Source of the DNA: Flaccisagitta enflata
Lineage: Eukaryota
Assembly: GCA_965153355.1 (NCBI GenBank)
Contig: OZ231126.1
Coordinates: forward strand, 23,622,001-23,686,000
DNA: 64,000 nt
Direction of reading: 5' to 3'
Shown: positions 1,698 through 49,774 of the stretch, in pieces
How the letters are laid out: each line of letters opens with the position of its first letter
How positions within the stretch are numbered: the first letter of the stretch is position 1
Translations under genes and position numbers: made by a program
The notes under the pieces: model-generated
Databases searched by the model: none
Told to the model about the DNA's origin: nothing
The model's input: the letters and a program-made list of their open reading frames with translations, nothing else

Positions 1698-3072
1698 CTT
1701 GTTTAATGAAATACGTAATTCTCAGTCTCCTCTTTTTCATCAAACAAAATTGGCAAGCAGCCTACAAGCAATACTAGCAATTGTACCCTGAAAATCACTA
1801 CTCATGTATCCATCAAAAAATCTAAAGCGTTTTCATTCACTTGAAATCCAAAACCATTTCATTTACAATCATTTCCACTGGGACAATTCTTTAAATGATA
1901 ACTCAATTTGGCGGCGACTAAAGAATTGTATTTAACTATCCCAAATTCTTCTATTCCTTATTTTATTTATTCTTTTTTATTTCGAGTAAGATCAATAAAA
2001 GATATTGATGTAAGTCTGACTCAGACTGCATGCATATGCGAAAAGTGCGTATGAGCATGCTCGCTCATCTGCGTGGCTGCTATTCAATATTTGAGCTAGT
2101 TCTCATCATACCATTGCTCGTGATTTAACAGTTATTCTGACTATTGCAGCATGCAGTGACTGAGGAGAGTGACCTGTGCTAACGACTTTTATCCACACGG
2201 CGTTAGCCGCCATTACACAATGGTTGTTCGGGTTTTTTTTCTGCAAAAGTTGCTACTCGGGCACATATCGCTCATCCTCTCGGGCAATGTACCATCTTGC
2301 TCAAAAATATCGTCTCAGTAAAACAAGATGTATATTGTTGTTATTTCTCATAAAAACTTAAATATTTCTGCATAAATATTTAGTATAAGCTCTTATTGTA
2401 TCATATACCCTTTTTTACTGAATTGGGAAGATATAGATATAGGATTTATATACAATTTTGTAGAACCGGTTCTTCAAACTTTCCAGCAGTTTTTTTTTCA
2501 TCACTTTCTTACCTATGTATATTCATTTTAAAATGAAATTCAAATAGTTTGTACTAGAAAAATCTGTTTGGCGGTATTCAACAGATCTTTCAAAGTTCTT
2601 TTCAATGGTCACCAATTTTCATATGATTTTACAATAATAAGCCTAAAAAAAATAAAAATCACAAGTCAATATTCTTCTTCTCATTTTTTGCATATTTTCT
2701 GTTTTTTTATGGACATGAACGTGTTAACTCTTTTAGCTCTAAAATCTAGACAAATTGAGCTACTGAGCTCTGCTTGGTGGAATTTTAAAGATTTTTTCTT
2801 GCTTTTTTTAATGGTAACTGATTTCAATGTTTTTTAAATTAGATTAGTCACAAATTAGGCATAAAGGTGAGACGATATTTTTGAGCAAGATGGTACTCAC
2901 ACGATTTGAATTACGTTTATCATAAATGCATGGCCAAGAGACACTGACCGCCTTTTTCCCTATGATAGTAATAAAATCGGCTGGGGAAGTTAATGCTATG
3001 CTTAAAAGTTAGGCGCCAGTGCAGTATGCACCGGGATGAATAGTATACACATGAATACGCTAGGTCAAAATC

Positions 3073-3385
3073 CAGGGGTGTATATTCTTGAGTCGCTTTT
3101 GATTGTTTTCCCCCCCCCCCGCCTTTGATTTTCTTCCCCGCGATGCTTCGCGTCGCGTTTTTATATCCATGTTTTTCTTCCCCATATAGCAATGAAACTA
3201 TGTAGTTATGGCCTAAATAGTGTATTACAAATTGAGTTTTGTGATTTGGTACTGTAAAAAGTTAGATTTTCCCCAAATTTCCTTTTTTTCTCTTTTTTTC
3301 CCCTTTGATTTCCTTCCCCATCTCCAGACCCTTTGATTTCCCCCCCCCACTAGGGGGGGGGGAAACTCAAGAATATACAGGCCTG
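3073..3385. mobile_element. hAT-type MITE
   Basis: TIRs CAGGGGTGTATATTCTTGAGT / ACTCAAGAATATACAGGCCTG flanked by a perfect 8-bp TSD TCAAAATC (3065-3072 and 3386-3393); an 8-bp TSD with CAG termini is typical of hAT. Confidence 0.85.
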
Positions 3386-4054
3386 TCAAAATCTATGCAG
3401 TTCCGACAACTTTCTCTTTTTTTAAGCTGACTAGATGAAATTGTCAATCACTTACATTTTTCAGGGAGAAGAGAGTAAGAGAGAGAGAGAGAGACAAAGA
3501 CAGACAGAGAGACGGAGAGGGAGACACACACAAACACAAAGAGGGACAGTGAAACATTGTGAGACATTGAGAGACGGAGAGAGACAGACAGGTAGATAGA
3601 CAGACAGACAGGTTTATTGACTATTGGCTTGATTGGCGAATCTTGTTTCTAGACTAATAAACTGAAATGGAAAGTATCTAGTTTTTGAAACCGACAATTA
3701 TTTGAAGAACAATGATGATCTACTCCATAACAACAAAATGCACACTAAAATACGAATGATTGGCATTTGACAAATTAACAATTAAGGCTACAACAAAAAA
3801 GATTTATAAAGAAAAAGAAAAAAAACATGGTCAAAACAGTCATAAATCGGTGGAAGGCTAGAACATATAAAACGAGCTACACTTACTAATGTAAAATATT
3901 CAAGAGGATGATTTTTAAGGCATTACACGGAAGTTGAGCGCATTCGGATGATACTTATAAACATTAATGTAAAAACAATTCAAACATTTGATGAAACAAA
4001 TTTTGAGCAGGCTTGAGTTACTAATGACAATGTTACATCATATACCATCGACAT

Positions 4055-7000
4055 TTATTTAAGCATTTCCGCGTGTTCCATGACATGCTGCGAGACTCCG
4101 ACGAGAAATTCGGGACTCAATTTGTCGCATCTTCCCAAAGTCTCGTCGCAGACTTTGCACTTGATGATCAGCTTGTCCCTGCTCAAACTGATGCGCAGCA
4201 ACTCCAAAGTGTTGTCCTCGTCCTCGCTGTCGTAATTTGCCGCAGATGACGACGAAGATGTTGGAGGTGCTGCGGTGTTTTTACGCGGCAATTTTGCCGC
4301 AGGAGGAGGAGGAGGAAGAGGAGAAGCGGGTGGCGAAGGCGTTGGCGGAGGAGTGGCGATCTTGTTGTTGCGGATCACGTCGTCGTCGCACGGAACGATC
4401 GGCACTATCGGCAGCCGATACAGCTTCAAGTCTTGGTTTTCGTAGCTGAGCCACCAGCGCGCCGTCGCGTCGTTGAAGCCTTTGGAATGCGAAGGCTTCA
4501 ATTTCGGATTTAGCATTTTCTGCATTCTTTTGTTTTTGATGTCAGCTTCCCACGGCAGACTGTTGGCGGCGCAGTCCTTGCTGAAATTGACGGAATCTTT
4601 GCTAAAGGAAACGCGACGATTGTTATTCGGCAAAGACTGACGTTTTTTCTTGAGTTGGGAAGTTTTGAGACTGCTCGCTCGGGGGAAGGAGACGTTGGCG
4701 GGTTCCTCGTCGCTTTCCTCGCTGTTGCTGTAATCGTCATCGTCGTCGACCGTAATCTTCCTTGATAGAGTCTTCGCGTGCTTCGATTTAGGATTGATTT
4801 TCGGTAGGCAAGATCGTTGCAACTGATCGACGATGGAGAGTTGTTTTTTGTTGTTTCCCTTTTTGCTGCCAGCCTCGAGTCTAGCGAGTTGCTGCAAAGC
4901 CCTTTCGCGTTCTTCTTCCTTTGACATTTTCGCGACGCCTTTGGTTGGAGATGCTGCAGAAGCTTTGACATTCGTTTGCTTAAATTTCGACTTGTTGGTC
5001 AACACTGGACGTTGATAATTTTTACCGCCGCCGTTACTGCTACCGCGGAATAAATTGTCGCTGAGGCTGCTGTCGCTTTCATTATCCAAGCTACAGGCGA
5101 TTTTATTGGCAGCAGCGCCGATAGCTTTGCCGATAGACGGTCGAGCGTTTCCATCCGAAGATTTCCTTTTTGGTACTTTCAGCTGGTAAGTGTCGTTGAA
5201 AACCTCGGCGTCACTTTCATCCATGCTGTCGTTATCGTCATCATCGTCGTCGTCGTCGTTGTCCATGGGACTCGCTGGTTGAATTGCCTTGAGAATCTTT
5301 TTAGCTTCTTCCTTGATTTTCTTTGGAGATTTCGCGTTTTTGACATTTTTAGGTGACTTGTTGAAAACGATCGGAGTTTTGTTGATTTTAGGTCTCGTTG
5401 ATGTCCCAGACAGAACCATTTTTTTCTCTCGTTTGACTTCACAGTCGTCATCGTCGTCGTCTTCTCTCTTCCTCTTCCTGCTGGGTGTCCGGGAGGATGA
5501 TGCAGCTGCAGCTGATCGTCGCCATTTGCCTTTGATGACGGGAAAGTTCATGACGTTGAAGCCGACAGTTTTTCTTCCTGAGATGGTCGTCAACTCCAAA
5601 GTCTCAGTAGATATCTTTGAGCGGAGTCTGGAGATGCCTGGCGAGGGAGTTGGAGGCTCGTTTATAGAGTGATCCGTATCGGATGACAGCTCCTCCTCTT
5701 CCACCTCTGATGGCTTACTTTTTAATGCAGTGTCTTTTTTGGACATTTCCTCCTCCTCCAAATCGTCATCGACCTCCTCATCATCATCCTCCTCCACTAT
5801 TCTTCTCTCAATTTTGGCCTTCTTTGGCATCTCACCTTCTTCCAACTCGTCCTCTTCATCATCTTCCTCTTGTTCAATTTCTTTTCCCTTTTGCAACTTT
5901 TGCGAAATCTTTCCATCTTCCAACCCTTCATCTTCCTCTTCCTCTTCCTCAATCGCATTTTTCTCAACCTTTGCTTTCTTTCTTGGCACTTCTCCTTCCT
6001 CCAGCTCATCTTCATCCTCCTCCTCTTCTTCTTCTTCCAAGTCCTTTTCTATCTTGGCCTTTCTCGCCGGAGATCTCTCCTCCATTTCTTCCTCCTCTTC
6101 TTCCTCATCAACCTCCTCTTCATCTTCCTCCTCTTCGTCTTCTTCATCATCGCTGTAGGTCAGCTCACGACACATGGACACTTCCTTCTTGATCTCCACT
6201 TTGGGCTTCTTGACAAACTTATGGGCGTCTTCCGGTCTGTGTTCTCCGGAGCGCTTCCCAATGACGTTCCACGCCTTCGTAGATTGACCCGCCGCTTGGC
6301 TTTCTTTTTGCGACTTCCTTTTGCTACTTTTAGCGTCCAAATTTTTGACGACTTCTTTTTTGATGGCGACAGCATTGGTCGAATCTTTGGTCGCAGAGTT
6401 GGTTGTAGTTTTAGTTGCCGCTTTTGTCGCCTTCTTGGCAGATTTTTTTTTGCTCTCGGCTTCAAGTCTCGCGAGTTGCTGCAGAGCCCTTTCTCGCTCC
6501 TCTTCCTTTGACATATTTAAAGCTCCTTTTGACGATGATGAAGATGCTGTAGTTGCGGCAGTTGCGGCAGCCTTCGGTTTTGGCAGACTTTTTCCAAAAG
6601 CGAGACTCTCGGGCGACTTCTTGCTGATGATGAAGGCGTTGTTTGAAACCGAAGAAACGCGCTGATGCTGCAGCTGTTTTGGTTTTTTGTTTGCGGAAGA
6701 AGATGCTGCAGTTTCTGCGGTCGAGTTAGCTTCTTCATCGGTGACAGACTGCGTTGATGTCTGTGAAGGCCCATTGGCGGTAGATGATGATGACGCCGCA
6801 GTGTTTCCCACTTCTTTGGCTAGCGTAGCTGGTCCTTGCGCTTTTGCTGCAGCTTTACCCGATTGTTTCTCCGCGTCGTCCTCCGTCTCTGAATCATGCG
6901 GCGATGAAGATGGTGTGACGTAAGGTGACGAATCTGGCGAAGTTGTTGAGGGCTTCTTCGTTGACGCGGGTGGCTTCGACGGCTTTGGCTGCGGCTTGAC

Positions 7001-7435
7001 ATCAGCTGAAGGAGCCTTGGCCGCGGAAGCTTTGGTCGTGGGGGTTCTGCCTTTGCCTTTAGCTTTAGCCTCCAGTTTGGCCTTAACCTGTTCGACGGTA
7101 ATGCCCTCCAGTCTGGCCAATTGCTGCAGCGCCTTCTCGCGTTCCTCTTCCTTCGTCATCGACGGAGGCTTGGAGCCGCCTTTGGATGATGCGGTCGACG
7201 ACATGGTCGAAGGTGCCGTCGAAGTCTTGCTTGGGATGTTGAGATTCACAGTTTCGTCGCTGTTGTTATTTGTTTTAGCACTGTGGTTTTCTTCCTTTGA
7301 ATTCGATTTCTTGAAAAATGTGTTGATTCTGAGTTGATTTGCAAATGTATCGATCTTTTCCTTCTTAACAGACGCAGCACTCATGTTGGCTAAAGGCTTT
7401 GTTGAGCTGAAATACAAATGGACTAGTCGATGCAA
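4055..7435 (-). CDS. Orphan low-complexity nuclear protein (~1110-1126 aa) with 3x MxKEEERE(R/K)ALQQLARLE repeat, acidic tract and C-terminal CxxC..HxxxH zinc finger
   Basis: Uninterrupted 3.4-kb ORF. Repeat copies differ mostly at synonymous sites. AATAAA overlaps the stop. The likely true start is the AAC-ATG at 7384, just downstream of an acceptor-like ttgtatttcAG (7407-7408). Confidence 0.8.
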   Translation of the reverse strand: MHRLVHLYFSSTKPLANMSAASVKKEKIDTFANQLRINTFFKKSNSKEENHSAKTNNNSDETVNLNIPSKTSTAPSTMSSTASSKGGSKPPSMTKEEEREKALQQLARLEGITVEQVKAKLEAKAKGKGRTPTTKASAAKAPSADVKPQPKPSKPPASTKKPSTTSPDSSPYVTPSSSPHDSETEDDAEKQSGKAAAKAQGPATLAKEVGNTAASSSSTANGPSQTSTQSVTDEEANSTAETAASSSANKKPKQLQHQRVSSVSNNAFIISKKSPESLAFGKSLPKPKAAATAATTASSSSSKGALNMSKEEERERALQQLARLEAESKKKSAKKATKAATKTTTNSATKDSTNAVAIKKEVVKNLDAKSSKRKSQKESQAAGQSTKAWNVIGKRSGEHRPEDAHKFVKKPKVEIKKEVSMCRELTYSDDEEDEEEEDEEEVDEEEEEEEMEERSPARKAKIEKDLEEEEEEEDEDELEEGEVPRKKAKVEKNAIEEEEEEDEGLEDGKISQKLQKGKEIEQEEDDEEDELEEGEMPKKAKIERRIVEEDDDEEVDDDLEEEEMSKKDTALKSKPSEVEEEELSSDTDHSINEPPTPSPGISRLRSKISTETLELTTISGRKTVGFNVMNFPVIKGKWRRSAAAASSSRTPSRKRKREDDDDDDCEVKREKKMVLSGTSTRPKINKTPIVFNKSPKNVKNAKSPKKIKEEAKKILKAIQPASPMDNDDDDDDDDNDSMDESDAEVFNDTYQLKVPKRKSSDGNARPSIGKAIGAAANKIACSLDNESDSSLSDNLFRGSSNGGGKNYQRPVLTNKSKFKQTNVKASAASPTKGVAKMSKEEERERALQQLARLEAGSKKGNNKKQLSIVDQLQRSCLPKINPKSKHAKTLSRKITVDDDDDYSNSEESDEEPANVSFPRASSLKTSQLKKKRQSLPNNNRRVSFSKDSVNFSKDCAANSLPWEADIKNKRMQKMLNPKLKPSHSKGFNDATARWWLSYENQDLKLYRLPIVPIVPCDDDVIRNNKIATPPPTPSPPASPLPPPPPAAKLPRKNTAAPPTSSSSSAANYDSEDEDNTLELLRISLSRDKLIIKCKVCDETLGRCDKLSPEFLVGVSQHVMEHAEMLK

Positions 7436-7910
7436 CAGTTACTCTCTCCTAAAGGGAAATTCGGCTTCTTTACTTGTTTGTTTGTTTGTTTGTTTTTAAT
7501 CAACGGCGATGAATATGAGGTTGATACGGTTCAAAATCAGTAAAAAAGATGAAACAGTTTCCATGAAGCAATGGCGTAAACAGAATTCAATCTCGTTTGT
7601 TGTAGTAAAGAGTTCGGAGAAGGTGTGGTAAATGCCGGAGAGTAGCACGTTCGCCTGTTTGTTGAGATGAAAGTGAGAAATGGGAAAGATTACGGTTTCT
7701 TGGCTTTTATCTCATACGCAAACTGAAGCCCTCTTGGGCCAGTCTGAGTCAGTGGAGGACGCATAGGCCAAAAAAGTCGTTACCCCGACAGGATTGACTG
7801 TCGTCTCGAAATCCAGTCAGTAACAATGACACAAAAACAATCAACCCCCTAAAACTCTGTGAGATTGAGACAGTCGGAACCCCTAAAACAACCCTCAGTT
7901 CTCTTATCAC

Positions 7911-7942
<32 letters not shown>

Positions 7943-8417
7943 TCAACAGAAGTCGAGCATCGAGAACTGAAGTTTGAACCCGCATGCCCCGGGGAAATAT
8001 GCCAGATGATGGCGGTAGAATGATTTTGCCTTATTTGATGTTTTTTATTGTTGTGTTTTTCTTGCTTTAAAATCAAATCGTAAAATTTACGTTGATATAT
8101 TTATATTTTTTAAAGAATTCTTTTTTAGTCGCGTGCACGCGACTCTATGACCTACTCTGTCCGTCTTTTGTTTGGTTGGTTCGTCCGTCTGTTACGCTTA
8201 ACTTTTCATCGTTTTAAGTCATTTTTGGTCATTTTAAGTCATTTCAAGTTACATTTGATCTTTTAGTCCATTGGTGTTTTAGTCTTTTAGTCTTTTAGTC
8301 TTTTAGTCTTAACAACTGCATGCAACTTTAAGTGCGTCCTCCCACTTCTAGAAGATGTCATGTCCGTCGGTTGGTTGGTTGGTTGTTCAGGTACGCAAAC
8401 ATTTGAAATGTGCAAAC

Positions 8418-8718
<301 letters not shown>

Positions 8719-9929
8719 AAGGATTTTTTTTCTATCATTACAATGAATCCCATTTCTTTCCAACATCATCTGACATTCGAGCCAAAACTTCTAAAACTGA
8801 GTTTTCTCGAGCAGCCGACACCGACACTCTTGAAGTCAAAACTGAATCATCTATAAGACCCAATGATAATGAATGAGAAAGGAGGGAAAAGTTAAATCGC
8901 ATCAGTAGCAACCAATTCAACAGGTGATAAACAGACAGACCAACCAACGTCGCGATGAAGCAGCTTTTAAAGTAGGTCTGACGAGTTCTTGTTGATGGGC
9001 ATGAACAGAGATTGTTAAAGATAGAGATTGGTTAAAAGAGATTGTTAAAAAGAAAGAAAAAACTAACGGGAAATGGCAATCCAAACCAACGACGAGTGGA
9101 CAGACCGATTGAGCGAAGGGGCTTCCTGATCAACTCATAGAAAAACAACGCCAACACCTTTAAGTCGCGTGCGGGACATAAATAACTTAGGATGGCATAA
9201 ATTGACTTTAAATGATTCAAGATGACTTTAAATGACTTAAAAAGACATAAAATGATGTAAGAAGACATAAAATGATGTAAGAAGACATAAAATGATGTTA
9301 AATGACTTAAATGACTAAATTGACCTGATTAACTTAAGTGACTCAATATAACTTAATACACGCTCTTGACTGAGTTAACTTAAGTGACTCAATATAACTC
9401 AATACACGCTCTTGACTGAGTAACCACGGGTTTTTTTCTTCTGAGGCTCAATGTAGTTATTTGAATGACGATATGAGGCTCAAACCGTTGCTAAAATTTT
9501 TATCTTTAGTCGCGTGCACGCGACTCTATGACCCTTTCTGTCCGTCTATCGGTCGGTCCGTCCGTAACACTTTGCTTTTTTCGTCGTTTTACATCATTTT
9601 AAGTCACCACATTTTACAATTGAATGCAACGGAAAATATGGCGAATCTAAGAGAAAAGTTGTTATTGGTTAGACTTGAGGCTGAAATGTTGTTATATTTT
9701 TGATTTTCTGAGGCTGACGATGTTGCTAGAAATGTTCTTATTTTTGTCCCCAGCGAACAGTTTCATCTGGTGACTATGAGATGGACCCTGATTATTGTAG
9801 TCACATCGTTTGTTCGTTGTTAGTTCGATTAAAACAGCCTCATATCTTTTGAACAGGCTCAGAAGTTAAGTGAAAGCTTTGCCAGTGTTATTTTTATGTG
9901 AATGGAGCTTATTGTACCAATTTTCAAGA

Positions 9930-11060: not shown

Positions 11061-12737
11061 TGTTGAATTTTTTGAAAAGTTTTTTTTGAAATTTTTTTGC
11101 AAAATTTTTTTTAAAAAAAAATTTTATTTTTTTTTTAAGAAATTTTTTTTTTGAAAAAAAATTTTTAAATTTTTTTTTTTTTGGATTTTTTTTTTTTTTT
11201 AATTTTTTTTTTTTTTGAATTTTTTTTTTTGAATTTTTTTTCTTTTTATATATTTTTATATTTTTTTTTTCGAAAAATTTTTTAAACATTTTTTCCTTAG
11301 ATTTTGGTTGTCATTATCATTCATTGTTGTCATCATCATCCACTATTGTTATCATTGTCAAGTTTTGTCATCATTAAAACAATATTTTTTTTTTCTTGAA
11401 ATAGCTGTCTTGTAGTGTATCTTCTCGAGTTGCGTTTATAAGAAAGCTTCAAAAATTACAGTCCCCAGTCGGGGACTGTAATTTTGAAGCTTTTTTGACA
11501 TTTTGAGCCTCAACGTTGTTATAACGAAGGTTGTTACTCAGTCAAGAGCGTGTATGACTGTAAATGACTTAGAATGACTTAGAATGACTAAGAATGACTT
11601 CTACTGCCCTAAAATGACTAAAAACAACTTAAAGAAATAAAAAAAAAGTTTGACGGACAGACCGACCGACGGACAGACCGACCGACGGACAGACGGACAT
11701 AGCAGGTTGTAGAGTCGCGTGCGCGCGACTAAAAAGTCGCAAAAGCGTCGGATGGTCAGCGGTGCACGATGTCCCACTTTGAGTTTTTTAAGTTAAACAG
11801 TTATGTCGACAATCGCCGAAAGGGCAAAATCGTCCTGGCCACTTTTCACCAAGTCTTTGTCTCCAGTCACTGTAATATCTTTTGGTTGTTAGATTAAATC
11901 ATGAGCAATTGTATGAGTGAAAGTCCTTTAAACAAATTAAATAGCACCCTCCGCAACAAATTTGTTTAGCACCCTACGCAACAAGCAGGTACGCTTATTT
12001 GCATGCCTTTTTGTGTTTTGGTTACACAAGTAACAAACATTTTCATTTGCCACTAAAACTGACCCTGTTACAGTTGAGCTTCACTAGAGCGCATGCCAAG
12101 GGACTGGGCCAAATTATGCCACACAGTGAAGCTGCCTTATTGCCAACATAGAAATATCTACAAAATCTTTCAAGGGACTGTATATTAGATGCCTTATAAG
12201 CGGGCATGCCTTAATAGCGGGTAAGCTCTGGCGGTGCTCCACTGTACTTACATTGCAATTTTCTAATTCAAACCTGTCTTTGTCAAACTTGTTCATCTCC
12301 CCTCCAGTCTTTCAGTCACAAATTGTCGAACAGACTTTCTCTCTGCCTTTCCGTTTTTTGACTATCTGTCCGTCAGTTTGACTGTCTGTCTGTCTTTCTG
12401 TATTTCTGATATCCTGTGTTTCTGATATTCTGTCTTTTTTACTTTCTGTCTGTCTATCTATCTGACTGTCTGTCAGTCTGACTGTCTGTTTAAGTGTCTC
12501 TCTCTCTTTCTCTCTCTCTTTCTTTTTCTCTTTCTATCTCTCTTCCTCTTTCTCTTTCTCTTTCTCTTTCTCTTTCTCTTTCTCTTTCTCTTCCTCTTTC
12601 TCTCTCTCTCTACTAATCGGGTGGATATGTTTTTTCTGTCTGTCTGCCTTTCTGTATTTTCAACATCTTGTTTTTTCTGTCGTTTTATCTTTGTTTCTGT
12701 CTGTGTTAGTCTGTCCGTCTGTCGGCCTGTGTCCACG

Positions 12738-12837
<100 letters not shown>

Positions 12838-12941
12838 CGGGTGTGCTGATCACGCACATTGATCTTTTGTTCTGAGACTTGTGATCATTGCCGATCGCTT
12901 TCACGATGCGAAGATGCTGCCATCTCCATGCGAAGATAAAT

Positions 12942-13028
<87 letters not shown>

Positions 13029-13250
13029 GTCTGTGCGTCTGTCTGGATCTACGTTTGCGTGATTTAACATACGTCCTCGCATTTCTTATGAAGGCTTTTC
13101 CGTCTTTCGGTCTGTCTGTCGTTATCTGTTTCGTTGTATCCCTCTCCTCCCCTTCGAAAGGCCTTCTTTGCTTCTCTTTGTCTCTCTTATTTTGTGTGAC
13201 GCTTAATTTCGAGGACAGAGACTTAAACGGAGGACCACCACTTAATTCAG

Positions 13251-13300
13251 GGGTCATCTCAAAGGGCATTTAGAGGTCAGATCGGGGTCAAAGTCATAAA
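13251..13300 (+). promoter_or_regulatory. Cluster of nuclear-receptor half-sites including DR5 (RARE-like) spacings
   Basis: GGGTCA-n6-AGGGCA-n5-AGGTCA-n5-GGGTCA-n0-AAGTCA followed by TAAA; function is inferred only. Confidence 0.35.
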
Positions 13301-18706: not shown

Positions 18707-21700
18707 CAGTTCAAAGCGGATAAAGCAGTCATACCTCGCAATTTAAAAAAGGCCACATTTACACTCTCAGCAGTCGACAATATTGATCACAATACTAGTG
18801 GAAATCAATCCATGGACTCATTCCATGGTACATCCATCACCATGCACCAACAGCCAACAGAATCATCAATCAATCAAGAAGCCTTCCAGATGACCAACCA
18901 AGGCTACACAATTGAACTTCCAGAATCCTACAGTGTTATTGAGGATATTGAGGGCATAGTGGGGGCTAAAACTCGAGTGGCTGCCACTACAAAAGTAGTG
19001 AATTATCCAATCATTGACTTTGAAAAAGAATTGGGTAAAGAAAAGGAGTGGTCGAACCAGAGCAAAATTCTGCTCTCTCAATCATCATTGGCTGAGAATG
19101 ACATGATAAGCTATTCAGGTTATTTCTCTAAAAAACATGCCGCTGATAACGATGTCACGCCTGCAGTGACTGGAATTTTTCCTGTTTTCCATCAAAAAGC
19201 AGCCGAAAAACCCATGCTAAAGCACACCATGAAACAGGTATGTACTGCTGTTCAACATTTGAATGGCAATCAGATTCCCATCCTTGTTGGGGATCAACCC
19301 ATCTTTGCAATTCTGAAGACGATACAATGGGAGTACAGTCAGTACAATGAGCAAAAAACAGTGGTGCTACTGGGTGGTCTTCATACAGAGATGAATGTAT
19401 GGTCTGTTGTTGGTAAACTGATCGATGGTTCAGGAGTAATTGAATGTTTAGCTGAGGCAAATGTGACCACAAGTGGTCGTGCTCAAAGCATCATTAATGC
19501 ATCCCATCTCAAGCGGACAAGATATGTACATGAAATAGTACATGTGGTATTTCAAGATCTGAAGCATAAAGCGTACAGAGAGAGTTGATCAGATCTATCC
19601 ATTGATGAATGGACTTCAATCAGATGTGGTCAATCCCCAAATTTTTTCTTTTGGGATATGATCCTTCGTTTCCAAGCAAAAATTTTTGCTTTTGTTAGAG
19701 CTCACAGAGAGAGAAACTTTGACCTGTATGTAAGTTCCTTGGAGGAATTATGTCCCTATTTCTTTGCTCTGGACAGCCCAAATTACTCTCGCTGGGCCCC
19801 AGTTCATGTGCGTGATATGAAGTGTCTGCCTCAATCAGTTTTGGAGGAATTCAAAAAAGGGAATTTCACTGTGACAAAGAGTAATCACAAGTTTTCCTCC
19901 ATTGCAATTGATCAAGCACATGAGTAAAGCAACAAGCTTATAAAGGGTTCAGGGGGCCTTGTTGGATTGTTTCATAATCAGGAGTCTCTAATTCAAGGCC
20001 TCATTAATGCTCCAGAAATTGCAAGACTTTTGCAAGAATTTGGAAAAACTCTACCAAATTGGGGAGTAGAAGAGGACGATAGTGATGTTATGCTTGAGCA
20101 CCATGAAAGCTCGCCTAGTTTTCAGAAAAACTTTCATGCAAAAGCCAACAATTTGCTATCCAAAGTTTGTCTCCATGGAAATCCGTTTTCCATTGATCAT
20201 CCAAACATGCTTAACCTAAGCAATGGAGATGCATATGACCCTTTGATTGATGAAACTCATAGAAACCTAGAGAAAAAAGGGAAGGAACAGTACAAAACTT
20301 TTGTTGGTGAGGTCTTACAAAATGGCAGTAGATCTTTATATGATCCAATTACCAAAAACTCTTTTCCACTCATGAGCACACCATTGAAGCGTATGACCAC
20401 AGCTGGAAACAGAGTGAAAATCATCAAACTTAACAGTGAAATATTTTCAGAAGCAGCGGCAGTTCTTGAACACAGAACATTTCCTATTGAAAAAATCTTC
20501 AATTTTGAGCAGCACTTTTTCGCTCCAGCAATTTCTGACTTCGGTGAGTTGCATCTACCAAAAAACAAATCTGATCTGGTCTATACCATTGTTACTCCAT
20601 GTCATAATCCTCCTGCGGTAGGTGAGGCTGAATTTGATCCTACGTCAACTATTATACTGGATGGATTAAGACTTGTTACCCAATTTCATCCAAATCCTTC
20701 CATGACATTCATTGACTATGTCAATTACCTGAGCAAAAATGTCATCAGCCTTTTCTTTGTGTTCAGTCAAAGGGTGGACATAGTGTTTGAAACCTTTTTG
20801 GAAAAAAGTCTCAAGGCTTCTACACGTCAAAAAAGAGGCCATGGACCAAGGCGCAGTGTTTCCAAACTGACCAAATGCCCAAGCAACTGGGCCCAGTTTC
20901 TCAAGGACTCACTCTTCAAGGAAGAGTTGTATACATTTTTGGCGGAAGAACTGACTCCTCTTACCTATCCTGAAAGTAGACAATTGTATGCAACTTCTAA
21001 AGAGAACGTTTTATCCAATGGAAGTCTTCCTATGGAGGATTGTGACCATGAAGATGCAGATTCAAGAATGCTTTTACATGCGAAGCATGCCATATCTCAA
21101 GGAATGAACAAAGTAAGAATCCTAAGTAATGACACTGATGTAGTCATCATTGGTCTTGGTGTATATCACAGGCTGCGTGCAAGCTTCCATTTTGAAGACA
21201 TCATCATTGAGTTTGGTCTAAAAAAAGACCACAAGGCTATCAGCCTAAAATCTCTAGCGGAATCTCTTGGAGAACTTCGCTGTCAAGCTCTCCCTTTCTT
21301 TCATGCCCTGACAGGCTCAGACACCACATCTGCATTTAAGAGTATTGGTAAGAAGAAAGCATATGAAGCTCTGAAAGTATGTCCAAATGCAGAATCAACT
21401 TTTGGGTTCATTTTCAATAACCCTTTTCATAATTTCGCTCAGGATGATGCTAAGTTTGAAAGCATTCAAAGATTCACAATTCTGATGTACCACAAGACAT
21501 CAATGTTGACAAAGGTCAATGAGGCCCGTAAGCGTTTTTACTTCCAGCGGACTAAAAACATTGAAACTATTCCTCCAACAGAGGATGCACTGTTCTTGCA
21601 TACTTTGCGGGCAATTTATCAGGCTGGAGTCTGGAGTAAGTCATTAGAAATTTGACAAAACCTTCCATCACCTCAAGCTTTTGGCTGGAAGGATTCAGAT

Positions 21701-34878: not shown

Positions 34879-35159
34879 CTTTTCCTCCCAACATATTGTT
34901 TCTCTTATGTCTTGCTCCACACAAAAACTACTTCCTCGTTATTCTGATTTTTTCCTTCCTTTTCTCCTGATGGTGAATGGAATGTCAGCAAATTGACATC
35001 AACAACCATCATCGTTTTACAGGCCCATCCAGCCCATCGTGCCCCGTAATAACCATCATCTTAATATCATCGTATATATCGCTGCAGCCCTCACGTCCTA
35101 GACTTTTCTTTACAGTCCCTCTTGCGCGTTCTTCTTCTCTTTTTTCCTCTCTGCTTTTG

Positions 35160-35507
<348 letters not shown>

Positions 35508-36140
35508 TCTCCCTGCTGCATCAGCAGCTGCGGCATGAATTTTGAAAGAGTTTTTTTCAGCCGCGGCCGCAGCTTGGGCGGTAAACCGTCTGCTGCTGCC
35601 GCGTCATCTCCCAACGAGATTGCATGAGTGAAGGACTATTCGCGCGGATGAATACAGATTACTGTCTTCATCTATCCTTTTTCATTTCTTTCGCTTGTGT
35701 TTCTGTCATTGTTCTTTAATGTTTTTCTATCTTTTTTGTCTTCATTTTTTATGGTTTGCCTTTTTTTTTTGTCGCGGAATCGCATTTCTATCAGGGGCTG
35801 CGTCCGTCCGCGTCCGTCCGTCGATCCATCTTTCCAGTAGCCCATGAAGCGCAAGTCAAAAAGTGTAAACCCGGGTGTTTTCGCCCCTGCCCAGTACCCA
35901 CCCTAACCCCTCCCCCTTTGAGGAAATTGTAACCCTAGATTACTTGATTTCTCCTCTGTCCTTTTCTATTCCTCCGTAAATATACCTACTTGCCTGTACG
36001 TTTCTCAATGTGTAGTTTAGTTGCCTGTCTGTATGTCTGTCTACATTTTTATACGTCTGTCTCTGTCTGTCTGGCTGTCTGTCTGCCTGTCTGCCTGTCA
36101 GTCTGTCTGTCTGTCTGTCGGCCTCTTTCTTTCTTTCCTG

Positions 36141-36239
<99 letters not shown>

Positions 36240-36347
36240 GCTTGTCTCTCTGTCGCTGAACGTATCCTTTTTTACTGAAATTGTTCTATTTTTGTCTCTG
36301 ATGCAGCTGAAGAAAATTTCATGTGGGAATCTTTCTGTGTTTGTCTG

Positions 36348-36449
<102 letters not shown>

Positions 36450-36879
36450 TCTCTGTTTCCATCCTTCATTTCTTTCTTTTGCTCCTCCTCTGTTGTCTCC
36501 TTTTCCTCCCCTTCCTCCTCATTCCTCTCCTTCTGCCCCTCCTCTTCCTCCACATTTCATTTCTGGACTCCTCCTCTTTCTCCACTTGTTCCCTTTCTTT
36601 CTCTTATTCTTCCTCATTGCACGTATTCCATCGTCGTCGTCGACTTCGTTGTCGTCGTCGTCAGCGTCGTTGTCGTCGTCGTCATCGTCGTCTTCGTCAT
36701 CGCCATTGTAAACAACGCCGTAATCATCATCGTTATCGCCCTTGTGGTCGTAGTTGTCGTTTTCGTCGCTGCTATGCTCGTCGTCGTCACCGTCGTCATC
36801 ATCATCGTCATCGTCATCAGGTTTCTTTTTCTCAGGGCAGCGAGGCGCGTCGTCTACGTCGTCGTTGCCATTCCCGTCC

Positions 36880-36960
36880 TCTGATTGGTCTGAATTTTTT
36901 TCACGACGAATGTGACAGTTTGATTGTTTAATTAAACGTATATGTGTCCCAATGAGCAGT
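36880..36960 (+). promoter_or_regulatory. Candidate TALE/homeodomain cis-regulatory module upstream of the Hox exon
   Basis: TGATTGG, TGACAG (Meis/Hth core), TGATTG, TTAATTAA and CCAAT within 80 bp of unique sequence between microsatellites. Confidence 0.35.
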
Positions 36961-37259
36961 GCAAGGCGTACGCCGTGGTGGTCGCAAATCAACTTGTGCG
37001 TGTTTGTTGAAAAAGGAAGAGAGAAAGGAGGGGGAACTGGGAAGACAAGCGCCCCTCTCTCTCTATCTTTCGATACCGGGCGCCTCTTGTTTATTACACT
37101 TTTCCCTTTTTAGTGGCGTTTTACGGAATGACGCCATACTTAGCCACACCTGTACCTACACTAAAAGACAAAAGACAAAAGAAACGAAAACCAGAAACAA
37201 ACAAGAAAAAAAAAACCCATCGTCAGGTGAACGCGATCATAACACCCATTGCGCGCGCT

Positions 37260-37358
<99 letters not shown>

Positions 37359-37526
37359 CTTTGCTTTCGTCAGCGCCGTTTTTTTTTTCATTTCCGGTTT
37401 TCTTTCCATCGCGTCAAAGCTTTGGGCGCGCCAAGATCAGGTTTTGTCCTTTTGAATTTTTTGCTCACATTTCTCCATATTTCTTCTCCGCATTTTCTTC
37501 GGGCATTAAGTAGTACTACTTTCTTA

Positions 37527-37702
<176 letters not shown>

Positions 37703-38334
37703 CACAAAGACATAGACAAACTCAAACTCAAACATTCACACACTTAAATCCACACTCACTCACTCACTCACTCATTCACTCACTCACCCACTCACATGTT
37801 ACATATTTCATGCGAAGACGCACAAAATTGGTAAGAACATCTACTCAGTTTTTTTTCTCTTTATTTACTCTTTTTCTTCTTTTGCCGTTTAGTCAAATGA
37901 ATGAAAAGCGCGTCTTCCAATGTAATCAACAAGAGGGAGCAATCAGCGTAAAAATAAAGAGGTGACGACACAAACAAAAGGACAAACGAAATGAACGTCA
38001 TAAACGATGATCAAATAAAACGCTGACTAGCCGCAATGGAAAAGAAAAACACGCAATAAATACGCATGTCTCCGACGCAATAAACGACGCAACGTTATTC
38101 GACAATTCATGTGCGTGAATGTGTGTGTGTTTGTGTATACAGGGCTATCTTTTCCATAGCTCTTTCACCTTCGCACATCCTCCCTCTACATCTCCAAAGT
38201 CCGAAAAATTCTGTGAGTTTTCACCCACGCCAACGCTCGCGCGCCCTCGCGGGTCTTCGCTTGAAATAACAAACCTCAGATAAAAAAAAGTATATATTTC
38301 ATTCTAACCTCGCCCACACACAACCACCCCACCG

Positions 38335-38625
38335 ATGTTAACCATGGCGACGATGAGCACGTATAACGTGGACACGTTATTGTCGTCGCGTGGTGGCGGC
38401 GGCGGCGTCGGTGGCGTCCCAGGAGGCGGCGGCGGAGGCGGTGGAGGCGGCGTCGATAGCGCCATCATGGACAAATTTAACGTCAACGGCACCGTCAACG
38501 GAAGCGTTAACGGCGTCAACGAATATTCCGGCGCCTTGAATCATCACAATTCCAACGCCTACGGCGCTCATTGCAATTACCCTCCTCATTCGCAGCCGCT
38601 GCATCCCAGCGTTGGCGCCTCTCAA

Positions 38626-38657
<32 letters not shown>

Positions 38658-39517
38658 ACAACAACAACATCCTCATCAGCCTCAATCGACGCCTCCCCAT
38701 CAGCCTCACACCCCTTCGGGCTTACCCTCGGACATTACCAATGGGGGTGGTGCAAGTGGGAATGGTTCTCATAAGTATCACACAACGAACGGTTGGGGTA
38801 ATCATCATCATCAATCGATGGGCACCCCCAATAACTCGGCCCCTTCCTCGTACTCTTGTCACGGCGCGGCTCTTTCAGCGTCCGCCGCCGCCGTGACTTC
38901 CAGCCCCCGATGCCCCAGCGTCGGCTCGATGGGGGCAGCTCACGGAGGAGCCGGAGGAGGAGGAGGAAGTGGCAGTGACTATTCCGCGTATCAGCCTCCA
39001 GGCGCCACCGGCGCCCCAGGAACGCCAAATGAAAACGATTACGTGAAAATGACGGTTTGCGCGGACACTTACGGCGGACACATTCCGGGACACATCGGAC
39101 AAGCGTCGCATCCGTACGGACATTCTCAACATCCATCGCAACAGCATCAGGCCGCCCAACAACAGCAACACTCGGCCGCCCAACAACATCAGTCTCAACA
39201 ACAGCAACAACAACAGCAACAGCAAGGACATCCGAATCGGTGGTCGCCCCACCCGAATCAAACGCCCCCTCACGGTGGCGGCCACAGTCCAGTGTTGGGC
39301 AGTTCGTACTCGTCTCCTCAAAACCAGGGTCTCGGTATGCCGCATGACGGATTCTCCTCTCAGGGGCATCCGGGCGCCATATCTTCCCAACATCAGGATC
39401 TTCCCAACAACCACAGTCCCATCCACAGCATCTCATCGTCTCAATGTTATAACAACGGCGGTCATCAACAGTCCGGAGGACCGCCAACACCCTTCTATCC
39501 TTGGATGAGCTTAGCAG
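38335..39517 (+). CDS. Hox: Central-class Hox gene exon 1 (Ubx/abd-A/Lox2/Lox4, Hox8-like); homeobox exon not found in this window
   Basis: N-terminal MSTYNVDTLLS resembles Hox MSSY/YVDSL starts; G/Q/H/P-rich body; hexapeptide FYPWM followed by SLAG and an immediate phase-1 donor CAG|GTAAAT (39518). Ubx has FYPWMAIAG at the equivalent junction. The paralogy group cannot be fixed without the homeodomain. Confidence 0.88.
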
Positions 39518-39599
39518 GTAAATCATTGTTAAAAACGTCTGGCTAGCTTACTGCTTGTGTTTTCTTACGCGTCTGCATGTGTGTGCGTGCGAGTGCATG

Positions 39600-39804
<205 letters not shown>

Positions 39805-41065
39805 GTCTGTGTCTGTGTACGTGTGTCTGTGGTTGTGTACGTGTGTCAGTTTGTGTTTGTGCCTTGTCGGTGCTTATATATGGAGGGTTTTTTGTCAGTT
39901 TTTGATCTTCAATGGATACCAGATCATAGAATCAACATTTGCATGTGTGTCTTCGTGTGGGGACTAGATATAAAAGATCAGTAGGCGGGATTGTGGACTT
40001 ATATTCATGCATGAAGGCGAAGAAGTTCCTCAGGGAGGAGAAAAAGAGTTTCCTGAGGGAGGAGAGCTCGATTTGATTGACTTTTATGATAGCAAAGGAA
40101 TCTCGACCAAAGGCTTTCTAATGATATGAGGAAGAATCTTTTAGAAGATGAAAAAAAAACAGAGCCAATTATCTTTAATGACTGAAAGAATACCCGATCA
40201 TTAAGTAAGCACATATCTATGTATCAAATTTCATTGGCGCCCCTCCCCCTTCCCGATACAAACAGTTCATTTTCATGTTTAACGCCCTAAACGAAACTAA
40301 AAGAATTTAGACCTAACTTCACGTATCATAAATTGATACTCGAAATTATTATTCATTTACCATAGAAAAAAAACTTGCTTTTCTTGGAAGAAAAACAAAA
40401 GACACCAACGAAATAGGAATACGATCATCATGTTTGAATACTCGGTTTAAGAATGAGCCTATAAACAAACTGGAAAAAAAAGTTAACGGGGAAATAAGAT
40501 GGACATGATGTACATGAGATGTACATGTAAGATGTACATAATAGAAAATAGATATTTTACTCCAAAAAAGAAGAATGAATTTATTGGATCAAAATCTGAG
40601 TGAGCCTGACTCATGTGTGGGTAGACGCGGTGGGTGGGCGAAGCCTGAAAACGCGTGGGTTGGGAATGATGAGTGGGAAGCCATTGATCTTATGTCTATG
40701 AGAACATAAAACATGCAGCTTTGTTTTGTCTTTTTCTATATCACTCCGTCTTTGTCTCTCTCTCTATCCATCTATCTAACTGGTCTTCACCTTCTTCTTC
40801 ATCTTCTCTCACTTGTTTTGCTTTTTTGAGGCCCCCAGGGATTTTTTTCTCCATGAATATTTTGGTATGTTATTTTTTTTTCTTCTCTGAAGCTCATCTG
40901 CTATTTCTTCTCTTTCACTGACTCTCTTTGTTTTCGTTTCTTCGTCTTGTTCTTTTTTTTTCTTTCTTTCGTTTTTTCTTCCTGTTTGAAACCTCTTTGC
41001 ATAATTCATCGCTAAAAAGATGGACTACGGTTGTTTTAGGTGTGAGAATGTCATGATAGAAACGC

Positions 41066-41150
<85 letters not shown>

Positions 41151-41345
41151 CAGACAGACAGACAGAGACAGACAGAGACAGAGACAGAGACAGACAGAGA
41201 GAGACAGAGACAGAGAGAGGAAAGAAAAATAGAAACAAGTGAGCAAGACGGAAAGAAATATCTGTTAAGCCAAAATAAAATACGATCTCCCTGAGCTTCG
41301 AGCGAAATCGTAATGACTCCTGGGCTTATGGAGAGCATTTCGGCC

Positions 41346-41456
<111 letters not shown>

Positions 41457-41759
41457 CATCCGTTCAAATTGACTCTCTCTCTTTCGACCACCAGGGCGAT
41501 GATAAACTTCCCATCATCTTTCTCCCTTGAAATCGTTCTTCACATGTTTTAGTTTTTAAGAGAGAGAGATAAAAAGAAAAAAAAAAGAAGGGATATGTTT
41601 TATACTTTTAGTTAAAAAGCCGCTTTGAACGAGAGAATCTGGATTATATTTATGGGGGACACGGATGGATTTGATGTAAGCGATTTTACTCCTTTCATTC
41701 AAAACATTAATCAGCCCCACCAAAAATATCGATGTATAACTATTTGTACATACGTATTT

Positions 41760-41965
<206 letters not shown>

Positions 41966-46517: not shown

Positions 46518-46794
46518 CTTCCTCTTTACACAGCCTCTGATGGTCAATAGCTTTAGGTCCCTCTGACCACGGTATAATGGCCGATCACTCGCATAGCCAT
46601 GTCTTAGGCACATTCACCGATCAATTCACTACCGATGCAGGAATAGTGTGATACCGTTTATCCTCTTCTTACCCTCAAAAATACAAAAATACAAAAATAC
46701 AATCCTCAGTTTTCATTGCAACGCTAATAACAATATTTCACAGGCTAAAACTCAACTCAAATGTGATTATTAACATTCGATCTCAGTAAGAAAT

Positions 46795-48366
46795 ATGGAT
46801 CCGGACCAGAAAATGCAAAACATTAACATTATGACTTCGCTCCTCTCTGATTTTAGTCATAAGAAAGACCTTAGAACTACCGCTTCAAAGAAAAAGAAAT
46901 GCCACACCAATGGAAAGATATTGAAATCTGAATTATGTTCATTGCACTTCACCAAAAAAAGAGACCTTACTCTACACAAGATGGCACATGCGGGGGAAAA
47001 GCCACTAACATGTCAGCACTGCCCTGCTTCATTTTCTGGCCTTAAGGAATTGAAAGTACACAAACGGACCCACGCCAAGGAGACATCGTTGAGATGTGAT
47101 CTTTGCCTCTCTACTTTTGTTGCTAGGGCTAAGTTGGCAGAACACATGAAAACCCACACTGGCGAGAAACCGTTCAAATGCGATTTTTGCCCAGCTGCAT
47201 TTTCTGCGAATAGAGGTTTGGTGGGACACAGAAGGATACACACCAATGAGAATCCATACACCTGTAAGCTTTGCCATGCTTCTTTTCCTCGAAGCGGTGA
47301 CTTGAGGGTTCACACTAGGGCACACACTGAAGGTAAAAAGAAAAAATTCACATGTTATCATTGTCCTGCTTCATTTTCTCAAAAAGTTAATTTGACAGGA
47401 CACATGAGAACCCACACTGGCGAAAAACCATTTACTTGTGACAGTTGCCCTTCTGCTTTTACTGAAAAAGGCAATCTGGCCCGACACAAGAAAATTCACG
47501 CTCACGAGAAACTATTCAAATGCGATCTTTGTCCTACTGCTTTTTCTCATAAAAGTGCTTTGATAGCACATAAGCGAACCCACACTGGAGAAAAACCATA
47601 TATTTGCGATGCTTGCCCTGCCTCTTTTTCTCAATCAAGTAATTTGACGCGACACAAAAGAACTCACACCGGCCACAAGAATTACAAATGTGAACTTTGC
47701 CCCGCTGCCTTTATTGAAGCTCAAAACCTGAAACAACATCAAAAGTTGCACACCGGTGAGAAACCATTTGGGTGTGATCTTTGTCCAGTTGCTTTCTCTC
47801 GTAAAGGTGACTTAACGAGACACAAGCGGACCCACACCGGTGAAAAACCATACTCATGTGATGTTTGCCCTTCTGCTTTTGCCCTCAAAAGAAATTTGAC
47901 GAGGCACAAGAGAATTCACACTGGCGAGAAAATTTTCAGATGTGAAATCTGCCCTGCTACATTTACCCATAATGTGTTGAAGAGTCACATGAGGGTCCAC
48001 TCTGGCGAAAAGCCTTTTAAATGTGACATTTGCTCTTCTGCGTTTTCTACAAGTAGCGATTTGACAATTCATAAAAGAATCCACACCGGCGAAAAACCTT
48101 TTAAATGTGACATTTGCTCTTCTGCTACTTCTACAAGAGGTGAATTGACATCTCACAAGAGAATCCACACCGGAGAGAAACCGTTCAGTTGTCATCTATG
48201 CCCGGCTATATTTACTGCAAGGAATAGTTTAGCGGAACACAAGAAAACCCACGCTGGTTGGCCGCGAGCACGCAGAGAAAAAATACATAATGCCGGAAAA
48301 CGTTCTGAATCTGATCCTCATGCGAAAATTGAATATGAACCAGCGCAAGTAAAAGTCGAACTATAG
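46795..48366 (+). CDS. Tandem C2H2 zinc-finger protein (15 intact fingers plus degenerate N-terminal fingers)
   Basis: Repeated CxxC-x12-HxxxH units with TGEKP-type linkers (one finger is a residue short); C-terminal VKVE SUMO-like motif; AATAAA at ~48545; acceptor tttcacAG at 46743. Confidence 0.92.
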   Translation: MDPDQKMQNINIMTSLLSDFSHKKDLRTTASKKKKCHTNGKILKSELCSLHFTKKRDLTLHKMAHAGEKPLTCQHCPASFSGLKELKVHKRTHAKETSLRCDLCLSTFVARAKLAEHMKTHTGEKPFKCDFCPAAFSANRGLVGHRRIHTNENPYTCKLCHASFPRSGDLRVHTRAHTEGKKKKFTCYHCPASFSQKVNLTGHMRTHTGEKPFTCDSCPSAFTEKGNLARHKKIHAHEKLFKCDLCPTAFSHKSALIAHKRTHTGEKPYICDACPASFSQSSNLTRHKRTHTGHKNYKCELCPAAFIEAQNLKQHQKLHTGEKPFGCDLCPVAFSRKGDLTRHKRTHTGEKPYSCDVCPSAFALKRNLTRHKRIHTGEKIFRCEICPATFTHNVLKSHMRVHSGEKPFKCDICSSAFSTSSDLTIHKRIHTGEKPFKCDICSSATSTRGELTSHKRIHTGEKPFSCHLCPAIFTARNSLAEHKKTHAGWPRARREKIHNAGKRSESDPHAKIEYEPAQVKVEL

Positions 48367-49077: not shown

Positions 49078-49460
49078 GAAAAAAGAAAAAAAGAAAGAGA
49101 ACAGCTGATTTTGAGTGTGTGTTTTTTTTTCCGCGGTTACGTCGCTGTAAGTAGTGAGGAAATGGTACAATAACCGCCAATAAAAGCCCAGTTGAACATC
49201 AAGACCGATCGTAAAGGCCGTTATTTATGCCCGGTGCGCGGAGAAAGCGGGCGGGGAAGGGGAGGAGGAGGACAAGGGGGGAGGAGGAAGAGGAGGAGCA
49301 GGCGGAAGAGTCACGCCGTGACCGTTCAATGAGGCGAGGATGAGCAAGTTTGAAAGGGAAAGTGCCTCTCCTTCTTTTCTCCCCCTTCAACACTGCTGGC
49401 AAGATGATGTTGATGGTGTATCTGAGGAGAATAAGCCGGAAGGGAGATAGTAAAAAGAAA

Positions 49461-49680
<220 letters not shown>

Positions 49681-49774
49681 AAGAAAGAGAGAGAAGGACA
49701 GACAGACAGACAGAGGCTAAAAGATAGTCAGACCAACAGCCAGAAATGTGAATATTAAAAGAGAGCGAGGAGGT

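Follow-up and report, generated by a model that had tools for sequence, protein, structure and literature searches.

We analysed 64,000 nucleotides of contig OZ231126.1 from Flaccisagitta enflata (assembly GCA_965153355.1, positions 23,622,001 to 23,686,000 of the forward strand), a stretch that we call the window throughout. The minus strand of the window carries a long open reading frame (ORF), and its predicted product is referred to here as P0001. Within P0001, one 18-residue module occurs three times. All three copies are in the same frame and lie in sequence covered by RNA, and the peptide that they share is under strong purifying selection. The gene, the copies and the RNA-covered span have the following positions in the window.

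4055..7384 (minus strand): P0001 coding sequence, one uninterrupted ORF of 1109 codons plus stop, 3330 nt.
7106..7159 (minus strand): motif copy 1, MTKEEEREKALQQLARLE, residues 76-93.
6461..6514 (minus strand): motif copy 2, MSKEEERERALQQLARLE, residues 291-308.
4874..4927 (minus strand): motif copy 3, MSKEEERERALQQLARLE, residues 820-837.
3818..7356 (minus strand): span tiled by RNA contigs from two marine RNA libraries, X3 and X8 (transcript evidence).

The start of P0001 was set at the first ATG (7384) downstream of an upstream stop. The original prediction had placed three such peptides at the positions listed above, hundreds of residues apart, without naming the strand; all three are there, on the minus strand, and the codons that it quoted for LARLE in the three copies are exact. 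The motif consensus is M[ST]KEEERE[RK]ALQQLARLE, and copies 2 and 3 encode the identical peptide. The motif starts are spaced by 215 and 529 residues, and the intervening linkers consist of 197 and 511 disordered residues. At the DNA level, a repeat finder recovered the copies as a three-member direct-repeat family (D7, 55 nt, 80-87% DNA identity). A 9-mer composed of at least five residue types and occurring three times appeared in none of 2000 shuffles of P0001. No fourth copy was found in P0001 at a threshold of 8/18 identities, and translation of the whole window in six frames gave no further one at a threshold of 10/18 identities.

Pairs of copies differ at 7-12 of their 54 bases, mainly at third codon positions. 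We counted the substitutions between copies by the Nei-Gojobori method, with pS and pN denoting the proportions of synonymous and non-synonymous differences.

Copies 1 and 2: differences at codon positions 1/2/3 of 2/1/9; 9 synonymous and 3 non-synonymous; pS 0.79, pN 0.070.
Copies 1 and 3: differences at codon positions 1/2/3 of 3/1/7; 8 synonymous and 3 non-synonymous; pS 0.74, pN 0.069.
Copies 2 and 3: differences at codon positions 1/2/3 of 1/0/6; 7 synonymous and 0 non-synonymous; pS 0.63, pN 0.

Corrected dS between the copies is 1.4, about 3, or undefined, which amounts to saturation. Of the 18 residues, 16-18 are identical between copies, while their synonymous sites are nearly randomised. 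Codons differ at 8/16, 7/16 and 7/18 of the identical residues, compared with 9.3, 9.3 and 10.9 expected if codons were drawn independently from the codon usage of the gene. The codons of copies 2 and 3 agree slightly more often than expected from independent drawing (P=0.04), and these two copies also share a looser similarity over 94 nt (77%, direct-repeat family D8), so they are probably the younger pair. The flanks of the copies are unrelated, with 0-4 of 15 residues identical upstream and 1-6 of 15 downstream, so that the conserved block has sharp edges. A search of Rfam with positions 3000-8500 at E<=1 gave a single match, to the sR52 snoRNA model at 6106-6154, which lies outside the copies and, at 20.2 bits, is well short of the gathering score of 50. 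Purifying selection on the motif peptide is therefore well supported by a pN of 0-0.07 against a pS of 0.63-0.79. This agrees with the original prediction, which had drawn the same conclusion from nearly identical peptides with third-position differences, and the dN/dS between copies, which it had proposed to compute, is not near 1.

The public sequencing runs that match the stretch comprise two DNA runs from one organism and several marine metagenome and metatranscriptome runs. The pieces from libraries X3 and X8 across 3818-7356 are 90-99% identical to it, and no joint is listed within the ORF. As a silent-stretch control for RNA coverage we used 7400-8103, where DNA reads are present and RNA depth is zero: the depth of X3 and X8 is 0 in all bins, versus 115-219 for the DNA run X1. 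The lack of joints, together with zero RNA depth just upstream, fits a single-exon transcript starting just upstream of the ATG at 7384. Copy 2 lies within one RNA contig (X3 record 15, 6119-6907), copy 3 within two (X3 record 12 and X8 record 18), and X3 record 16 covers copy 1 save its last base. Among the 40 of 239 differences that were listed, the sole variant inside a copy is 4907 G>T in copy 3 (X1, X3 and X8), a synonymous change from CGC to CGA.

P0001 is rich in K (12.9%), S (12.3%), E (11.3%), A (9.1%) and D (6.9%), has only 30 aromatic residues, and contains basic KKAK-type clusters and acidic runs. Its structure was modelled with AlphaFold2 from the single sequence. The model predicts a near-totally disordered protein, with a mean predicted local distance difference test score (pLDDT) of 36.9 and 1009 of the 1109 residues below 50. 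Helices are predicted at residues 78-92, 97-108, 297-305 and 691-694, and three strands with one helix make up a predicted unit at the C-terminus. Copy 1 coincides with the helix at 78-92, in a block with a pLDDT of 73-77. With respect to the helical hydrophobic moment, ERALQQLARLE from the motif ranks second of the 1099 11-mers in P0001, after KIKEEAKKILK at residue 689. The helix that comes after copy 1 in the chain is the following feature.

7061..7096 (minus strand): second predicted helix, residues 97-108, directly after copy 1 and after no other copy (AlphaFold2; pLDDT 77 over residues 91-100 and 66 over 101-110).

On the sequence searches made, P0001 is an orphan, almost without detectable relatives. 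No Pfam family matched the whole protein at E<=10; the three motif segments of 42-52 residues likewise matched none at E<=10, including the ubiquitin-interacting motif (UIM, PF02809), a weak negative because short-motif models are insensitive. Against PDB sequences, P0001 gave only matches at E>=0.47, to acidic or proline-rich stretches, and the motif profile gave none at E<=10. A homologue search with the whole of P0001 found none at E<=0.001 among 8000 scored candidates, probably crowded by acidic low-complexity words, and the whole protein had no usable match in the ESM Atlas. When 1.84 billion representatives were searched exhaustively with phmmer, two matched, both short fragments within residues 656-784 and neither over a motif copy.

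P0002: 94 aa, 95% identical to P0001 residues 656-747.
P0003: 124 aa, 38% identical to P0001 residues 688-784 (E 1.5e-05), from a marine eukaryotic transcript set.

P0003 and P0001 have in common KxIKEAxKxLKAI, an acidic run, F-x-DTY-x-LK-x-P-x-RKS and SDNLF. The motif profile was also compared with a collection of 5.8 billion clusters (proteins of 75-2000 residues), where 1199 candidates shared words with it and none reached E<=10. In our calibration, a perfect 18-residue core with unrelated flanks scores about 44 bits (E ~5e-6 at Z=5.8e9), whereas the last 11 residues alone are borderline (E ~10-18). Given this power, close full-length copies of the motif are absent among the word-filtered candidates of that collection. 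Among JGI metagenome contigs, 390 pattern matches were obtained for the motif alignment and 591 for the block that P0001 has in common with P0003, and tblastn confirmed none of them. Since P0001 itself is absent from the searched collections, its lineage is probably poorly represented there. The original prediction could not assign the motif to a known one, and the same result was obtained here with Pfam and PDB and with the literature text, in which no occurrence of the 7-letter core string was found; nor did any search, that with the motif profile included, return a known repeat domain.

The two ends of P0001 carry features of their own, namely a pattern of the PCNA-interacting-protein (PIP) box type and a cysteine- and histidine-containing module.

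7313..7336 (minus strand): PIP-box pattern QLRINTFF, followed by KK, residues 17-24, in agreement with the consensus Q-x-x-[ILMV]-x-x-[FY]-[FY].
4061..4210 (minus strand): C-terminal mini-domain CKVC-x20-HVMEH (CxxC...HxxxH); the pattern occurs in 1 of 20000 shuffles.

The PIP-box consensus is the one quoted in the excerpted text of PMC8053108. Residues 17-24 have the canonical pattern and form a candidate PCNA-binding site. By chance, such a pattern appeared anywhere in the protein in 49 of 20000 shuffles and within the first 40 residues in 0 of 20000. At the other end, the C-terminal 80 residues folded alone gave a pLDDT of 68, with strands (34-39, 42-47, 52-57) and a helix (62-76) predicted at about 68-78, and this module is possibly an atypical zinc finger. 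It has no Pfam match and no Foldseek match at E<=0.001 (best E 0.4). The best VIA comparison reached a Z score of 4.5, and SWI5 finger 1 (Z 3.7, root-mean-square deviation 2.3 over 45 residues) was level with unrelated folds. For residues 940-1109, ESM Atlas scores were at most 0.83, and the C2H2-finger clusters among them (0.77) are a weak lead.

We propose, with a probability of about 0.55, that the three copies are equivalent docking helices, connected by disordered linkers, in a transcribed, single-exon, nuclear-type scaffold that is tethered to PCNA. The three stretches would be paralogues of each other, each a short amphipathic alpha-helix that is self-contained. This helix would start at the conserved Ser/Thr of position 2, with Glu three residues on, which gives the S/T-x-x-E pattern of a capping box, a pattern that is also a casein-kinase-2-type site. 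Its first turns would be stabilised by E/R pairs at i, i+3/4, the E/R-rich turn region would be followed by a hydrophobic face of A10, L11, L14, A15 and L17, and the helix would be ended by Gly, or by Ala-Gly/Ala-Glu-Ser. On the helical wheel, E4 and E8 would extend the hydrophobic face, so that the partner would present a hydrophobic groove next to a basic patch. Most likely, all copies would dock the same folded partner in an equivalent way. P0001 could in that case bind as many as three molecules of this partner, or engage a single oligomeric or arrayed one with avidity, and the N-terminal PIP box would tether it to PCNA on replicating or repairing DNA. Multivalent binding of a partner by the copies can reasonably be inferred from the sequence. 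More generally, we infer the helix in all three copies, its docking, the multivalency and the PCNA context.

Several results weigh against this proposal. The original prediction had described the module as helical; in the AlphaFold2 model this holds for copy 1 (78-92) and in part for copy 2 (297-305, with a pLDDT of about 50), and it fails for copy 3, which is not helical in the single-sequence model of the whole protein. All 18 positions are conserved and charged residues lie on every face, which exceeds the needs of a one-sided docking helix; the helix may be enclosed by its partner, be recognised from two sides, or be under some other constraint. With about 11 synonymous sites per pair of copies, the ratio of non-synonymous to synonymous change is far below 1, yet dS is very imprecise. 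No motif-bearing orthologue was found in the searches made, and the P0003 fragment stops about 35 residues short of the position expected for copy 3, so it cannot test the motif. Finally, a poly-A RNA run of the same organism (X10), of which about 6/100 was read, yielded no reads other than those on acidic or low-complexity parts, at 90-95% likeness, and is uninformative on expression.

A more specific version of the docking proposal is a tentative and rather unlikely possibility. According to it, the motif would be a previously undescribed, fully constrained docking module of a lineage-restricted PCNA-tethered disordered adaptor, which would either recruit a single replication-fork or chromatin factor in three copies or bind an array such as RPA on single-stranded DNA. 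If so, it would be part of a new motif-domain pair of DNA replication or repair from outside the model organisms.

Among the alternatives to the docking scaffold, it is unlikely that the helices are binding motifs for the RPA32 C-terminal winged helix (RPA32C), paired with the PIP box so that three copies grip RPA-coated single-stranded DNA. RPA arrays would make multivalency useful, and such a function would fit the position of the PIP box at 17-24 and of copy 1 at 76-93. However, known RPA32C-binding motifs are basic helices on an acidic surface, whereas the motif has a net charge of -1 (4 K/R, 5 D/E), and the spacing in its C-terminal half is off by one residue from the consensus. The layout is like that of UNG2, where a stretch of about 90 residues holds a PIP box and, after it, an RPA-binding helix; the two proteins share a PIP box at the extreme N-terminus, a short conserved helix tens of residues on, a disordered region, and a phosphorylatable residue just before or at the helix start (UNG2 as described in an excerpt of PMC8053108). 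In the same excerpt, changing N77 or R84 of UNG2 to Asp abolished binding (PMC8053108). In the presumed register, these two contacts are Glu and Gln in the motif, so that it would be without equivalents of the Asn and the Arg. P0001 differs further in that its helix is present threefold over 760 residues and no catalytic domain follows; membership of the UNG2 type is not supported. The segment R-E-[RK]-A-L recalls the R-Q-K motif that CSB requires for RPA32 binding according to an excerpt of PMC11109976. Lineage-specific versions of the RPA-binding motif are present in ELM (LIG_RPA_C classes), among them an insect version with 0 instances, as stated in an excerpt of PMC4702912.

Equally doubtful is the view that the helices self-associate instead of binding a separate partner, whether as a bundle inside one molecule or, between molecules, as an oligomerisation or condensation module. 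Conservation of every helix face fits packing on several sides, three copies could make a three-helix bundle, and the hydrophobic face has the spacing of 3-4 residues. Yet no more than five residues make up this face, all of them small or medium and within the last nine positions, the first half of the motif is purely charged, and the copies are not packed together in the whole-protein AlphaFold2 model, which is of low confidence. A complex prediction with three 42-residue motif segments together (score 0.02, mark 0.34, without controls) speaks neither for nor against self-association and was not used as evidence.

We give still less credence to the suggestion that the helices are single-helix ubiquitin binders, of the UIM kind or of the kind known as motif interacting with ubiquitin (MIU) or inverted UIM (IUIM), working together with the C-terminal zinc-finger-like module as in repair adaptors with a PIP box and a UBZ finger. 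The UIM core is hydrophobic-x-x-Ala-x-x-x-Ser and the MIU core is Leu-Ala-x-x-Leu; compared by eye with these consensus patterns, the motif fails at two of three UIM key positions, and its MIU spacing is off by one. Neither the whole of P0001 nor the motif segments matched the Pfam UIM at E<=10. What the motif does share with UIM and MIU/IUIM, which are single helices of about 20 residues in an excerpt of PMC11520951, is this length, an acidic run at the start and an Ala/Leu core. Likewise, P0001 is similar to the repair or bypass adaptors that combine a PIP box with a C-terminal UBZ finger in its PIP pattern, its CxxC...HxxxH module and the predicted strands followed by a helix. Its 20-residue spacer is, however, longer than that of classical C2H2/UBZ fingers, and the C-terminal module is without a Pfam match or a clear fold match, since its structural matches are at noise level (Foldseek E>=0.4, VIA Z<=4.5).

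A function of the copies as CRM1 nuclear export signals, or as another localisation signal, is very improbable: such export signals have four spaced hydrophobic positions, and L11-x2-L14-x2-L17-x-A19 fits the class-1b spacing in copies 2 and 3, but only with Ala as the fourth of them, where copy 1 has Gly, and export would leave the invariant charged residues across the 18 positions without explanation. Hardly credible at all is the idea that the likeness owes nothing to selection on the peptide and stems from a recent duplication, from gene conversion, from an element at the DNA or RNA level or from an ORF without function; the estimates do come from short sequences, and the codon likeness and 94-nt similarity of copies 2 and 3 point that way, but duplication or conversion would have homogenised the synonymous sites as well, no Rfam match lies over the copies, and the ORF stays open over 3330 nt and is covered by RNA contigs, which are lacking immediately upstream of it.

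Multivalent scaffolds are known to be built from short helices repeated along disordered proteins, and the principle behind the docking-helix proposal is not new. The LD motifs of paxillin (LDxLLxxL), the repeat modules of KNL1 and the helical leucine-rich motifs of fungal Dcp2 are similar to the P0001 motif in the presence of several conserved copies of a short motif in a disordered chain, in the divergent linkers and in multivalency. In contrast to all three systems, the L-x-x-L-A-x-L of P0001 is, by eye, of neither the LD nor the LL-x-LL type, and all 18 residues of its motif are fixed, versus a handful there. The L-x-x-L-A-x-L spacing also misfits MIM1 of ESCRT-III, paxillin LD, the NR box, the Sin3 SID, AKAP helices, the VIM of p97 cofactors, the D-box and the cyclin RxL motif, as judged by eye.

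The unusual aspect of the P0001 motif is the degree of constraint, with 16-18 of 18 residues identical and synonymous sites nearly randomised, in a protein almost without relatives. The identity of the partner would define a new motif-domain pair, and given the PIP box, P0001 would probably be a new PCNA-linked adaptor from a poorly studied marine animal lineage. The motif is short enough for a direct peptide pull-down. The value is limited by the fact that this is an orphan gene of a non-model organism and that the motif is known from P0001 alone.

P0001 contains three further features outside the copies and the two terminal elements.

5750..6097 (minus strand): acidic region in which three looser modules centre on [K]KAK[IV]E, at residues 442, 469 and 521 (direct-repeat families D1, D2 and D5).
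5033..5323 (minus strand): block with the sole detectable distant relative, residues 688-784, consisting of the amphipathic KIKEEAKKILKAIQPA, an acidic run, then FNDTYQLKVPKRKS and SDNLF.
4604..4618 (minus strand): RRVSF, residue 923, like the PP1-docking RVxF motif.

Each module of the acidic region reads E-G-E-[VM]-P-[R]KKAK[VI]E or similar, with an acidic run behind it, and together they form a second, less conserved repeat system in P0001. In the block at 5033-5323, KIKEEAKKILKAIQPA and, after acidic runs, F-x-DTY-x-LK-x-P-x-RKS and SDNLF look like further conserved linear motifs. RVxF defines the docking motif for PP1, and RRVSF was rejected as such a site because it is within chance (909 of 20000 shuffles). 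A PIVPI pattern in P0001 is probably not beyond chance either.

Elsewhere in the window, a long Gln/Gly/His-rich ORF at 38308-39546 (plus strand) ends in PFYPWMSLAGK, and its YPWM at 39496-39507 is the hexapeptide of a Hox first exon, which we take to be Ubx-like. A homeobox exon (WFQNRR and similar) was not found anywhere in the 64-kb window. The P0001 gene is located about 31 kb from the Hox exon, on the opposite strand. An ORF of 530 residues at 46774-48366 (plus strand) encodes tandem C2H2 zinc fingers (Pfam zf-H2C2_2, E 9.6e-109). Retroelement-like ORFs are present at 59228-62490 and 49717-52568 (both minus strand). One of them contains DUF5641 (E 6.9e-20), presumably typical of the integrase tails of BEL/Pao elements; the remaining ones are without a Pfam match and have, by eye, gag-like CCHC strings. 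Two long ORFs of 293 and 575 residues at 18707-21655 (plus strand), without a Pfam family, are possibly a transposon-derived gene. Finally, dense microsatellites of the CT/GA, AC/GT and AAT/ATT types, in runs of hundreds of bases, are found at 8287-8790, 12426-13273, 34977-37965, 39533-39967, 41051-41963 and 49199-49849, and at 8514-8625 a dense microsatellite interrupted the read mapping.

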